Assembly: GCF_054482595.1 (NCBI RefSeq)
Contig: NZ_CM137008.1
DNA length: 64,000 nt
Reading direction: 5' to 3' (one strand)
Below the pieces are notes generated by a model. It did no database searches. It worked only from the letters and a program-made list of their open reading frames with translations, and was not told the DNA's origin. This document shows positions 4,403 to 59,601 of the stretch, piece after piece; position 1 is the stretch's first letter; the number at the start of each line of letters is the position of its first letter. The translations under genes and the position numbers were made by a program.

Positions 4403-4488
4403 TGTAGGCAGGATAAGGCGTTTACGCCGCATCCGGCATTTGAGCAGGATGCCTGATGCGACGCTGATAGCGTCTTATCAGGCCTACA
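4403..4488. repeat. REP/BIME element pair
   Basis: Convergent GCCGGATGCGGCGTAAACGCCTTATCC / GCCTGATAAGACG...CATCAGGC palindromic units between cpxA and yiiM. Confidence 0.8.
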
Positions 4489-13276: not shown

Positions 13277-13600
13277 GCCGGATGCGGCGCGAGCGCCTTA
13301 TCCGGCCTACAGGTCGGCAACAGTTGTAGGCCTGATAAGACGCGACAGCGTCGCATCAGGCATTGATTGCCGGATACGGCACGAGTGCCTTATCCGGCCT
13401 ACAGGTCGGCAATAGTTGTAGGCCTGATAAGACGCGACAGCGTCGCATCAGGCATTGATTGCCGGATGCGGCACGAGCGCCTTATCCGGCCTACAGGTCG
13501 GCAATAGTTGTAGGCCTGATAAGACGCGACAGCGTCGCATCAGGCATTGATTGCCGGATGCGGCACGAGCGCCTTATCCGGCCTACGGGTCGTGCATCCG
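13277..13600. repeat. Tandem BIME array: about 3.5 copies of a 92-bp unit, each holding a convergent REP pair
   Basis: Unit starts (GCCGGAT(G/A)CGGC...) at 13277, 13369, 13461 and 13553; near-identical copies, few substitutions. Confidence 0.9.
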
Positions 13601-22143: not shown

Positions 22144-25100
22144 ATGCAGGTCAGCAGAAGGCAGTTCTTTAAGATCTGCGCTGGCGGTATGGCAGGCACC
22201 ACGGCAGCGGCACTGGGTTTTGCACCCAGCGTAGCACTCGCGGAAACCCGGCAGTATAAACTGCTGCGCACCCGCGAAACCCGTAATACCTGCACCTATT
22301 GTTCCGTAGGCTGTGGGCTGTTGATGTACAGCCTCGGTGACGGAGCAAAAAACGCCAAAGCATCTATCTTCCATATCGAAGGCGATCCGGATCACCCGGT
22401 CAACCGCGGTGCACTTTGTCCGAAAGGCGCTGGCCTGGTGGATTTCATCCACTCCGAAAGCCGTCTGAAGTTCCCGGAATACCGTGCCCCTGGTTCTGAT
22501 AAATGGCAGCAAATCAGTTGGGAAGAGGCGTTTGATCGCATCGCCAAACTGATGAAAGAAGACCGCGATGCTAACTACATTGCGCAAAACGCCGAAGGCG
22601 TGACCGTTAACCGCTGGCTCTCCACCGGGATGCTGTGTGCTTCCGCGTCGAGTAACGAAACCGGCTATTTAACGCAAAAATTCTCCCGCGCGCTGGGTAT
22701 GCTCGCGGTCGACAACCAGGCGCGTGTCTGACACGGACCAACGGTAGCAAGTCTTGCTCCAACATTTGGTCGCGGTGCGATGACCAACCACTGGGTCGAC
22801 ATCAAGAACGCCAACCTCGTCGTGGTGATGGGCGGTAACGCCGCTGAAGCTCACCCGGTCGGATTCCGCTGGGCGATGGAAGCCAAAATTCACAACGGCG
22901 CGAAGCTGATTGTGCTCGATCCTCGCTTTACGCGTACGGCGGCAGTGGCTGACTACTATGCCCCTATTCGTTCCGGTACTGACATTGCTTTCCTGTCAGG
23001 CGTATTGCTGTACCTGCTGAACAATGAAAAATTCAACCGCGAATACACCGAAGCCTATACCAACGCCAGCCTGATCGTGCGTGAGGATTACGGCTTTGAA
23101 GATGGCCTGTTCACCGGCTACGACGCAGAAAAACGCAAGTACGATAAATCCTCCTGGACTTACGAACTGGACGAAAACGGCTTCGCCAAACGCGATACCA
23201 CGCTGCAACATCCGCGCTGCGTGTGGAACTTGCTGAAACAGCACGTTTCCCGCTACACGCCAGATGTGGTTGAAAACATCTGTGGTACGCCAAAAGACGC
23301 GTTCCTGAAAGTCTGCGAATACATCGCAGAAACCAGTGCTCACGATAAAACTGCCTCGTTCCTGTATGCCCTCGGCTGGACGCAACACTCCGTTGGTGCG
23401 CAAAACATTCGTACGATGGCGATGATCCAGCTGCTGCTCGGCAACATGGGGATGGCAGGCGGCGGCGTTAACGCCCTGCGCGGTCACTCCAATATTCAGG
23501 GGCTGACGGACCTGGGCCTTCTGTCGCAGAGCCTGCCAGGTTACATGACGCTGCCAAGCGAGAAGCAGACCGATCTGCAAACCTACCTTACCGCCAACAC
23601 GCCAAAACCGCTGCTGGAAGGCCAGGTAAACTACTGGGGCAACTACCCGAAATTCTTCGTCTCCATGATGAAGGCTTTCTTTGGTGATAAAGCAACGGCG
23701 GAAAATAGCTGGGGCTTTGACTGGTTGCCGAAGTGGGATAAAGGCTACGACGTCCTGCAATACTTCGAGATGATGAAAGAGGGCAAGGTCAATGGCTATA
23801 TCTGCCAGGGCTTTAACCCTGTTGCCTCATTCCCGAACAAAAACAAAGTGATCGGTTGTCTGTCGAAACTGAAGTTCCTCGTCACCATCGACCCGCTGAA
23901 CACTGAAACCTCTAACTTCTGGCAGAACCACGGTGAGCTGAACGAAGTTGACTCGTCGAAGATCCAGACCGAAGTGTTCCGTCTGCCATCGACCTGCTTC
24001 GCGGAAGAGAACGGTTCTATCGTAAACTCAGGTCGCTGGTTGCAGTGGCACTGGAAAGGTGCGGACGCCCCAGGGATTGCGCTGACTGATGGCGAGATCC
24101 TCTCCGGTATCTTCCTGCGCTTGCGCAAGATGTATGCCGAACAGGGTGGCGCGAACCCGGACCAGGTGCTGAACATGACCTGGAACTACGCCATTCCGCA
24201 TGAGCCGAAGTCGGAAGAAGTAGCGATGGAGAGCAACGGTAAGGCGCTGGCCGATATTACCGATCCGGCAACCGGTGCGGTTATCGTCAAGAAAGGCCAA
24301 CAACTTAGCTCGTTTGCCCAACTTCGCGATGACGGTACAACTTCCTGTGGTTGCTGGATTTTCGCCGGTAGCTGGACGCCGGAAGGCAACCAGATGGCAC
24401 GCCGTGATAACGCCGATCCGTCTGGCCTCGGTAACACGCTGGGCTGGGCATGGGCATGGCCGCTTAACCGCCGCATTCTGTATAACCGCGCCTCCGCAGA
24501 TCCGCAGGGTAACCCGTGGGATCCGAAGCGTCAGTTGCTGAAATGGGACGGCACTAAGTGGACCGGCTGGGATATTCCGGACTACAGCGCAGCGCCTCCG
24601 GGTAGCGGCGTCGGGCCGTTTATCATGCAGCAGGAAGGCATGGGGCGTCTGTTTGCCCTCGATAAGATGGCGGAAGGTCCGTTCCCGGAACACTACGAGC
24701 CGTTTGAAACGCCGCTGGGAACTAACCCGCTGCATCCAAACGTTATCTCGAACCCGGCTGCACGTATCTTTAAAGACGACGCCGAAGCATTGGGTAAAGC
24801 CGATAAGTTCCCGTATGTCGGAACCACCTATCGTCTGACCGAGCACTTCCACTACTGGACCAAACACGCGCTGTTGAACGCGATTTTGCAACCAGAGCAG
24901 TTTGTGGAAATCGGGGAGTCGCTGGCGAATAAACTTGGCATTGCCCAGGGCGATACCGTGAAAGTCTCCTCCAACCGTGGCTATATCAAAGCCAAAGCGG
25001 TGGTGACCAAACGTATTCGTACGCTGAAAGCGAACGGCAAAGATATCGATACCATCGGTATTCCGATTCACTGGGGTTATGAAGGCGTAGCTAAAAAAGG

Positions 25101-51097: not shown

Positions 51098-51248
51098 AAC
51101 TTTGCCTCAGGCATTAGAAATAGCGCGTTATTGTACACGGATTAATCGCACTACAAAACAGGATCACAAACATCCTCCGCAAACAAGTATTGCAGAGTCC
51201 CTTTGTGATCGCTTTCACGGAGCATAAAAAGGGTTATCCAAAGGTCAT

Positions 51249-51297
51249 TGCACCAATATGGTGCTTAATGTTTCCATTGAAGCACTATATTGGTGCA
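51249..51297. promoter_or_regulatory. Tandem NtrC-binding sites (TGCACC-N5-GGTGCA type) upstream of glnA
   Basis: TGCACCAATATGGTGCT (51249..51265) and GCACTATATTGGTGCA (51282..51297). Confidence 0.75.
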
Positions 51298-57496: not shown

Positions 57497-58006
57497 TTAG
57501 TTGCCCCGCAGCAGACGCATCATGTCTTCTTGCTTCTCGTCTTCTTCCTCTTCTTCGTCATCGTCATAAGAGAGGCCGAGTTTCTGCATCAACTCATCAA
57601 TACGATCCAGTTTAGCATCCACCCAGGATTGCTCTTCGGCGCTCAGGGTTTCGCCTGCTTCCAGACGTTCCAGCAGCGCATCCAGACGCTCATCCGTTTC
57701 CAGTAATTCCAACTCCGCCTGCGGTGAAAGCATAGGTTTCTCACTCTTCGGTTTGTGCTGTTTGGTGACTTTTTCAGTCACGCCCAATGGAATAGGGGTT
57801 TTACTGCCAATACGTGGATCTTTTGGTGCGTTCTGGCCTTTGCTGCCTGACGTGGTGTTTCCGCCCGCTGCGCGGCTGCCCGGCGCATGACCACGACGTT
57901 TTTTCTGACGCTTGCGATCACGAGCTTCCTGATCCAGCTCCTCGCGTGTTTTTCGACGCGCTTTTGCATGACCTTTGCTGCGTGAGTTTGAAGATGATGG
58001 TTTCAT
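57497..58006 (-). CDS. yihI: Der GTPase-activating protein
   Basis: 169 aa from [26 protein letters not shown]...; highly basic N-terminus, acidic C-terminus; ORF opens 21 codons upstream. Confidence 0.88.
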
Positions 58007-58075
58007 AATGGTTCGTCTTTTAGCCGTTTTATTCAGTATAGATTTGCGGCGGAATCTAACAGAAAGCAAGCAAAG

Positions 58076-58320
58076 AAAAAAGGCGACAGATTACTCTGTC
58101 GCCTTTTTTCCTGACTCATAACCCTTAACGGGTCTTACAATCCTTGCAGGCCGCCAACACACCCTGTTTTTCCTTTAGCCGGAACAATCCGTGTTGATTC
58201 CATTTCCGTTTAATTACGTCTCCGGACGTTTGTCTTCCTGACAATCCTCTGTCTTCGCCTCCTGGCGCTCCTGACCCTCATCCTGAGTCATTGTTCCTGT
58301 TAGCGTCCTCGCTCTATGGG
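58076..58320 (-). ncRNA. csrC: CsrC small RNA (CsrA-sequestering)
   Basis: Minus strand reads AUAGAGCGAGGACGCUAACAGGAACAAUGACUCAGGAUGAGGGUCAGGAGCGCCAGGAGG...; more than ten GGA motifs; ends in hairpin AAGGCGACAGAGUAAUCUGUCGCCUUUUUU; no ORF. Confidence 0.85.
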
Positions 58321-58587
58321 TGCTACTTTACGCCTTTGCTTTAAACAAACAATCAACCGCCATCAGTATTTGCACATTTTCAGAGTTTTATATAAAAGCA
58401 ATTCACTGATTTATATAGCTTATTTGACATGCATCGCAGAATTTTCTCTGCTATTTCGCATAAAGACTATCGGCAATGTCTCACAAAGCGTATGGCTTTT
58501 ACTTACAACGCTCACGCCGAAAAATCCGCCTTTTATTATGGTTCAGGTATAATCGCCACAAAGCTTTGACTGACGGAGACGACCGCT

Positions 58588-59220
58588 TTGACTAATTTGA
58601 ATTATCAACAGACGCATTTTGTGATGAGTGCGCCTGATATTCGCCACCTACCTTCCGATACCGGAATTGAAGTGGCTTTTGCAGGCCGTTCCAACGCAGG
58701 TAAATCCAGCGCGCTGAACACGCTGACTAACCAGAAAAGCCTGGCTCGTACCTCAAAAACCCCAGGGCGCACCCAGCTTATCAACCTGTTTGAAGTGGCT
58801 GACGGCAAGCGTCTGGTTGACTTGCCTGGGTACGGTTATGCGGAAGTCCCGGAAGAGATGAAGCGCAAATGGCAGCGTGCGCTCGGCGAATACCTCGAAA
58901 AACGTCAGAGCCTGCAAGGTCTGGTGGTGCTAATGGATATTCGCCATCCGCTGAAAGATTTGGATCAGCAGATGATTGAGTGGGCGGTAGACAGCAATAT
59001 CGCCGTTCTGGTGCTGCTGACCAAAGCGGACAAACTGGCAAGCGGCGCACGTAAAGCGCAATTGAATATGGTGCGTGAAGCTGTACTGGCGTTTAACGGT
59101 GATGTGCAGGTTGAAACGTTTTCTTCGTTGAAGAAACAAGGCGTGGACAAGCTGCGGCAGAAACTGGATACCTGGTTTAGCGAGATGCAGCCTGTAGAAG
59201 AAACGCAGGACGGCGAATAA
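58588..59220 (+). CDS. engB: Ribosome-biogenesis GTPase EngB/YsxC (TTG start)
   Basis: 210 aa (M)[21 protein letters not shown]...; G1 motif GRSNAGKSS; ORF initiates at TTG with GGAG RBS; TATAAT-like -10 (GGTATAATCG) about 40 bp upstream. Confidence 0.9.
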
Positions 59221-59345: not shown

Positions 59346-59454
59346 TAAAAAACGCCCCAGTCATTACTGACTGGGGCGGCTAAAATATTCAGCCAAATCC
59401 GATTACGTGAAGTAAAAGGTCTGAAAGATAGAACATCTTACCTCTGTACCCTAC
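59346..59454 (-). ncRNA. spf: Spot 42 small RNA
   Basis: Minus strand reads GUAGGGUACAGAGGUAAGAUGUUCUAUCUUUCAGACCUUUUACUUCACGUAAUCGGAUUUGGCUGAAUAUUUUAGCCGCCCCAGUCAGUAAUGACUGGGGCGUUUUUUA with terminal hairpin plus U-tract. Confidence 0.9.
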
Positions 59455-59601
59455 GCGACTAACTTTACTCTTTTTTGTTCAGTTCAGAAAGCACTTTTTG
59501 TAATTTTTTTTCAGTTGTTGCATAGGAATTTCTAATAGCCATCACAAAACGTGACAGCTTATGTTGCTTACTTACGAAAAAAGGGCATGTTCAGGCGAAT
59601 C

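Follow-up and report, generated by a model that had tools for sequence, protein, structure and literature searches.

The gap between yihI and engB carries a csrC gene identical to that of Escherichia coli K-12

What lies between yihI and yihA (engB), two genes whose start codons are 578 bp apart in the 64,000-nucleotide stretch of DNA analysed here (the window; contig NZ_CM137008.1, assembly GCF_054482595.1)? A preliminary description, made from the letters alone, had proposed that this gap of roughly 0.5 kb, free of open reading frames (ORFs), is explained by the small RNA CsrC, encoded on the minus strand. RefSeq records of E. coli suggest something different, as their PGAP annotation implies a protein-coding origin for the same DNA. 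We conclude that the interval is almost certainly the known E. coli csrC gene, which runs from a sigma-70-type promoter to an intrinsic terminator and specifies a noncoding CsrA decoy.

Identity and surroundings of the gene

The Rfam/Infernal scan, which the preliminary description had named as a check, returned a full-length match to the CsrC family (RF00084) at 58064..58317 (−), far above the gathering score (278.7 bits against 61, E = 6.4e-88). The match spanned model positions 1-255 of 255 and was not truncated. When positions 58000-58600 were aligned with E. coli K-12 MG1655, identity was 100% over 601 bp, a stretch that takes in the whole csrC gene and its flanks. The K-12 record holds the curated ncRNA csrC (b4457, "small regulatory RNA CsrC") at 4051036..4051281, between yihA and yihI, and alignment of b4457 onto the window gave a gene of 246 nt (Table 1); the published length of CsrC is ~245 nt (PMC9037510). 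The sequence, flanks, neighbours and their orientation, promoter, UvrY site and terminator are all the same as in K-12. No difference from K-12 csrC was detected, and the window reads the locus from the opposite strand to the MG1655 record.

The annotated K-12 transcription start maps to A 58317 (5'-AUAGAGCGAGGA...), and the 3' end of the RNA falls inside the U-run past the terminator. The full-length family match and the identity to b4457 thus bear out the proposed RNA, its strand and its place between engB and yihI. The limits given for it, 58076-58320, were 3-4 nt off at each end: compared with the curated gene, that interval has three extra promoter bases at its 5' end and stops where the U6 run ends.

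The proposed ORF-free gap also held up. The 578 bp between the start codons consist of a 62-nt spacer between csrC and yihI (the yihI ATG, at 58009, lies 62 nt past the csrC 3' end), the 246 nt of csrC itself, and 270 bp of divergent control region. Inside the RNA we found no ORF of at least 40 aa, only short chance ORFs of up to 39 aa. The surrounding gene order is the known one, with polA, spf and yihA/engB followed by csrC and yihI in the opposite direction. The yihA and yihI flanks are the same in K-12, Salmonella, Klebsiella and Enterobacter, and these two neighbours are given as the constant setting of csrC (PMC1488887). The K-12 record additionally annotates a small protein, SpfP, within Spot 42.

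Table 1. Features of the csrC locus and its neighbours (window coordinates).
Feature	Position	Strand	Evidence
yihI, Der GTPase-activating protein, co-directional with csrC	57497..58009	−	NF003560, 169 bits; K-12 annotation
csrC gene, 246-nt CsrC sRNA	58072..58317	−	RF00084 match; identity to K-12 b4457
Intrinsic (Rho-independent) csrC terminator	58073..58112	−	Terminator scan; cross-species pairing
GGA-bearing span (candidate CsrA-binding motifs)	58111..58308	−	Motif count; conservation
First G of each GGA	58308, 58297, 58283, 58271, 58262, 58247, 58238, 58223, 58207, 58201, 58190, 58173, 58143, 58111	−	
csrC core promoter	58325..58352	−	Invariance in 15 species; spacing to annotated K-12 start
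BarA-UvrY upstream activating site (by sequence match)	58468..58507	−	Match to footprinted E. coli csrC sequence
−10-like TATAAT of yihA/engB	58548..58553	+	Inside TTCAGGTATAATC, invariant in 15 species
yihA/engB, ribosome-biogenesis GTPase, divergent from csrC	58588..59220	+	TIGR03598 (YihA/YsxC = EngB), 252 bits; K-12 annotation
Spot 42 sRNA (spf), between engB and polA	59346..59464	−	Rfam RF00021, 122.8 bits

A 267-base query matched the csrC locus in 5425 of the 5426 complete E. coli genomes; the match reached or exceeded 99% identity in 4302, and a single genome lacked the locus. In NZ_CP148581.1 the locus was no more than 86.9% identical, a value that points to an Escherichia that is divergent or misnamed. 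In some 60 complete E. coli genomes the query matched in two places.

A separate observation concerns the spacer between the csrC terminator and yihI, where a block of ~30 nt, TTTCTGnTAGATTCCGnCnCAAnTnTATACTGA (~58033..58064, −), was near-invariant in 16 species. It holds the hexamer TATACT (58040..58035), and its conservation goes past the usual hexamers to include the would-be promoter spacer. In E. coli the block contains a 6-bp inverted repeat (TAGATT/AATCTA), and the Rfam CsrC model reaches into the block with its 3' tail (CUUUGCUUGCUU). Read most simply, the block is probably the promoter of yihI, unremarkable but well conserved, in which TATACT serves as the −10. We regard it as unlikely that the block is an undescribed regulatory element, such as an operator or an RNA element through which YihI expression would be coupled to the Csr circuit or to csrC read-through.

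The Rfam scan of the window also returned RNA elements away from this locus. The ES222 sRNA (RF02755) was matched over its full length at 51179..51286 (−; 133 bits), and SECIS_3 (RF01989, 84.3 bits) at 22726..22784 (+), which implies a selenoprotein gene there. Four matches to naRNA4 (CssrE, RF02564) lie at 4407..4484 (+) and 13329..13583 (−), three of them in tandem with 92-nt spacing; these look like repetitive extragenic elements.

Promoter and control region

The control region was analysed in an alignment of the 320 bp 5' of CsrC from 15 species. A strict sigma-70 consensus scan over 57900-58700 called no promoter, and promoters were placed by cross-species conservation together with the annotated start. 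The csrC −10 hexamer is TAAAGT (58330..58325, positions −13 to −8), which was invariant in all 15 species. It is separated by a 16-bp spacer from the −35 hexamer TTGTTT (58352..58347), the TTGT part of which was likewise invariant.

Further upstream, an imperfect inverted repeat, TGTGAGACATTGCCGATA, occupies 58485..58468 (−; positions −168 to −151), and a TGTAAG half-site is found 16 bp further 5', at 58507..58502 (−; positions −190 to −185). Repeat and half-site together match exactly the UvrY-protected E. coli csrC repeat of Zere et al. (PMC4682653). That repeat was footprinted with DNase I, and a UvrY ChIP-exo crosslink at −223 to −143 encloses it; a promoter-proximal crosslink was also reported at csrC, from −49 to +32 (PMC4682653). 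In the 15-species alignment, the conserved parts were TGT..GA.AT (the TGTGAGACAT core from 58485) and TGTAAG. Judged by its sequence, the region has the features expected of a UvrY-dependent promoter with an upstream inverted-repeat site.

On the other strand of the same intergenic region, the TATAAT hexamer listed in Table 1 lies 35 bp 5' of the engB TTG start codon (58588). It is the one −10-like element conserved for engB and is likely to be the engB −10; there was no good −35 hexamer at 17 bp from it. The preliminary description had placed the engB −10 region on the opposite strand just upstream of CsrC. The strand and the intergenic region were right, but the hexamer, though upstream, is not adjacent: 231 bp separate it from the csrC start, and the −10 and −35 of csrC itself and the published UvrY site lie in between.

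Structure, GGA motifs and conservation of the RNA

Folded as a single sequence, CsrC had a minimum free energy of −86 kcal/mol (z = −6.9 relative to shuffles). The intrinsic terminator already proposed from the letters was recovered at its 3' end, with a stem of 16-18 bp (18 pairs in the scan, 7 of them G-C), a 4-nt loop and the U-run UUUUUUCUU. Over 16 species this stem was 98% paired; 12 of its 16 pairs did not vary, and one changed in a compensatory way, between AU and UA.

A de novo consensus from RNAalifold contained the terminator and four small hairpins, together with an implausible long-range closing helix. We therefore used the Rfam consensus structure for the formal pair count, projecting it onto an independent MAFFT alignment of 16 sequences. 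In this alignment 86.5% of cells were paired, against 40-50% when partners were slid by 1-3 columns, a comparison that partly favours the tested structure by construction as it comes from Rfam, whose seed includes E. coli. Compensatory cells numbered 16, compared with 7.2 ± 3.0 in shuffles (none of 500 reached 16), and the covariation score was 0.101 where shuffles gave 0.083 (0 of 500). Six of the 59 pairs changed on both sides in the 16-species alignment, no more than in the shuffles (123 of 500). Covariation remains modest, since close relatives were sampled and many of their stems do not vary. Taken together, the support for a conserved CsrC structure is real but modest.

GGA triplets, which the preliminary description had pointed out, are indeed abundant: 14 on the CsrC RNA strand compared with 2 on the opposite strand. 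When every 245-nt segment of the 64 kb was counted on each strand, the mean was 3.0 GGA, and the highest count, 14, was that of the csrC locus. Ten of the 14 triplets occur as AGGA and six as CAGGA. The longer motif CAGGA(U/A)G, said to occur several times, is present but had been overstated, with exactly two occurrences (RNA positions 33 and 78). An outlying AGGA density, together with the yihA/yihI context, is a published hallmark of csrC (PMC1488887). Placed on the Rfam consensus structure, six GGAs belong to hairpin loops and another five to single-stranded linkers. Thirteen of the 14 E. coli GGAs had a counterpart no more than 4 alignment columns away in 14 or more of the 16 Enterobacteriaceae species compared, and the number per species ranged from 13 to 17 on the sense strand and from 0 to 2 on the antisense strand (n = 16).

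Orthologous loci were sought by scanning the whole collection with a 16-mer, GCGCCAGGAGGCGAAG, from the most conserved hairpin. The 16-mer is too short and GC-rich; it gave at least 120 matches, mostly chance matches in unrelated high-GC genomes. Twelve Enterobacteriaceae loci among the matches listed were usable, a narrow sample that is biased to species keeping the GCGCCAGGAGGCGAAG hairpin and is without the more distant csrC genes of Yersinia, Vibrio and Shewanella. All 12 of these other loci gave full-length CsrC matches, of 140-275 bits, and in each of the 10 for which the fetched flank was long enough Spot 42 was found ~1 kb from csrC on the same strand.

For Salmonella, Klebsiella and Enterobacter hormaechei, the csrC copies were taken from pieces of chromosome that are filed as plasmids. 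Plasmid-borne CsrC was considered and rejected, as the records matched in the plasmid collection are chromosomal, whole or in part, despite their plasmid label: pCFSAN003307, from Salmonella, has the gene order polA-yihA-csrC-yihI-hemN-glnG, and the supposed Klebsiella plasmid measures 5.4 Mb. Among the plasmid-collection matches there was no evidence for a mobile csrC. The PLSDB "plasmids" NZ_CP019203.1, CP125156.1 and NZ_CP077309.1 are mislabelled, each carrying the chromosomal polA-yihA-csrC-yihI-hemN block.

Coding annotation, related RNAs and mechanism

Could the region instead be a small-protein gene, or a decayed protein-coding gene, as RefSeq/PGAP implies? Every listed RefSeq E. coli record carries a PGAP "hypothetical protein" pseudogene (frameshifted; internal stop) at ~58125..58291 (−), and the listed records are without a csrC ncRNA feature. 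On the Salmonella CsrC strand, PGAP calls an intact 74-codon ORF (WP_001541209.1); the calls within CsrC are L001:2676-2842 and, in NZ_CP019203.1, L123:2481-2705. Against this, two stop codons interrupt the E. coli frame. Across the 16 species, neither strand has a frame that is free of stops in every one of them, and which frame is open longest varies from one species to another. Variable columns made up similar shares of the three codon positions (55/84, 52/85 and 51/85), which indicates no codon periodicity. The Salmonella 74-aa "protein" is low-complexity text, rich in Q, E, G and R, that is made by the AGGA repeats, an overlapping 78-aa ORF on the plus strand had no match in NCBIfam, and the curated K-12 record has an ncRNA at this interval. 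A coding origin is therefore very improbable. With no conserved frame and no codon periodicity, the PGAP pseudogene over csrC is an annotation artefact, propagated by homology and echoing a chance Salmonella ORF.

Two further readings accept a noncoding region, and we give each of them even less credence than a coding one. GGA triplets and hairpins could arise by chance in a stretch that is no more than a divergent promoter region or a 5' leader and makes no stand-alone RNA. Base composition does account for part of the count, since dinucleotide-preserving shuffles of CsrC averaged 8.8 GGA (sd 1.95); however, 14 or more were reached in only 18 of 2000 shuffles, and neither the strand asymmetry nor the position of csrC as the maximum of the window is expected on this view. 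The GGA positions are also kept in 16 species while the flanking intergenic sequence diverges (mean column identity was 80% within the RNA compared with 69% upstream), and the unit has a conserved promoter of its own at one end and a strong terminator at the other. The other reading, that the locus is a copy of the paralogue CsrB (clan CL00106) or a generic GGA-rich CsrA sponge, draws on genuine likeness, as CsrB and CsrC share a GGA-repeat architecture, terminator type and UvrY dependence (PMC7652899). Yet cmscan, which keeps only the best member of a clan, retained CsrC over the full model, and the 246 nt with 14 GGA found here compare with ~350-370 nt and 22 GGA for CsrB. The yihA/yihI context defines csrC, whereas csrB lies at yqcC/syd (PMC1488887), and the upstream repeat is the weaker csrC version, TGTGAGACATTGCCGATA, and not the csrB palindrome, TGTGAGAGATCTCTTACA. 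By clan competition, length, GGA number and context, the locus falls outside the CsrB family (RF00018). Both readings are extremely unlikely, and csrC remains the identification that we adopt.

Among known relatives, CsrB (RF00018, CL00106) resembles CsrC in being a multi-GGA decoy of CsrA with BarA-UvrY activation, turnover through CsrD and RNase E, and an intrinsic terminator (PMC7652899). It differs in having a near-perfect 18-nt UvrY palindrome and a need for IHF, while CsrC has a weaker repeat and no IHF requirement (PMC4682653). RsmX, RsmY and RsmZ of Pseudomonas and CsrB1-3 of Vibrio are likewise GGA-loop sponges for CsrA/RsmA homologues, under GacA/UvrY-type regulators and with an upstream palindrome (PMC1488887, PMC7652899). 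Unlike CsrC, they are shorter (RsmX/Y/Z are just over 100 nt), unrelated in sequence, located in other contexts and outside RF00084.

How would this gene work? The locus is a discrete noncoding unit bounded by a promoter and a terminator, with strand-specific, conserved and mostly unpaired GGAs and a conserved UvrY site. CsrA binding, UvrY activation and CsrD-dependent turnover are taken from the literature on the identical K-12 sequence, and would be expected to apply here by that identity. In CsrC, as in CsrB, a number of high-affinity sites compete for CsrA with its mRNA targets, so that CsrA dimers are sequestered (PMC7652899); the binding of several CsrA dimers by K-12 CsrC and its antagonism of CsrA are credited to Weilbacher et al. 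2003, as cited in PMC7652899. CsrA favours short hairpins that present GGA in their loop, and the SELEX consensus is RUACARGGAUGU (PMC7652899, PMC4682653). BarA-UvrY activates csrC without the IHF requirement seen at csrB (PMC4682653). Turnover of CsrC involves RNase E, PNPase and the EAL-GGDEF protein CsrD, with unphosphorylated EIIA-Glc as the trigger (PMC7652899, PMC4682653).

On this basis, csrC would be transcribed on the minus strand from 58317, from the sigma-70-type promoter (TTGTTT, 16 bp, TAAAGT), with phosphorylated UvrY activating it from a site ~160 bp upstream, and transcription would be stopped by the intrinsic terminator, ending near 58072. The resulting RNA of ~245 nt would stay untranslated and display about a dozen GGAs in small hairpin loops and single-stranded linkers, mimicking the GGA-containing sites of the mRNAs that CsrA targets. 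Each CsrC molecule could thereby hold several CsrA dimers, which would lower free CsrA and relieve mRNA targets of CsrA control, and CsrC would act in this jointly with its larger paralogue CsrB. The level of CsrC would be set by BarA-UvrY-dependent synthesis on the one hand and CsrD- and RNase E-dependent decay on the other.

There is nothing new about csrC in this copy, which is identical to the K-12 reference; CsrC is a textbook part of the Csr global regulatory system, and biologically the locus adds no novelty to it. What the analysis does illustrate is that a reader of the sequence alone was able to recognise a noncoding RNA gene inside a seemingly empty intergenic gap. It also bears on how such gaps are counted in E. 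coli, as pipelines that count pseudogenes or intergenic regions would inherit the PGAP error at csrC.
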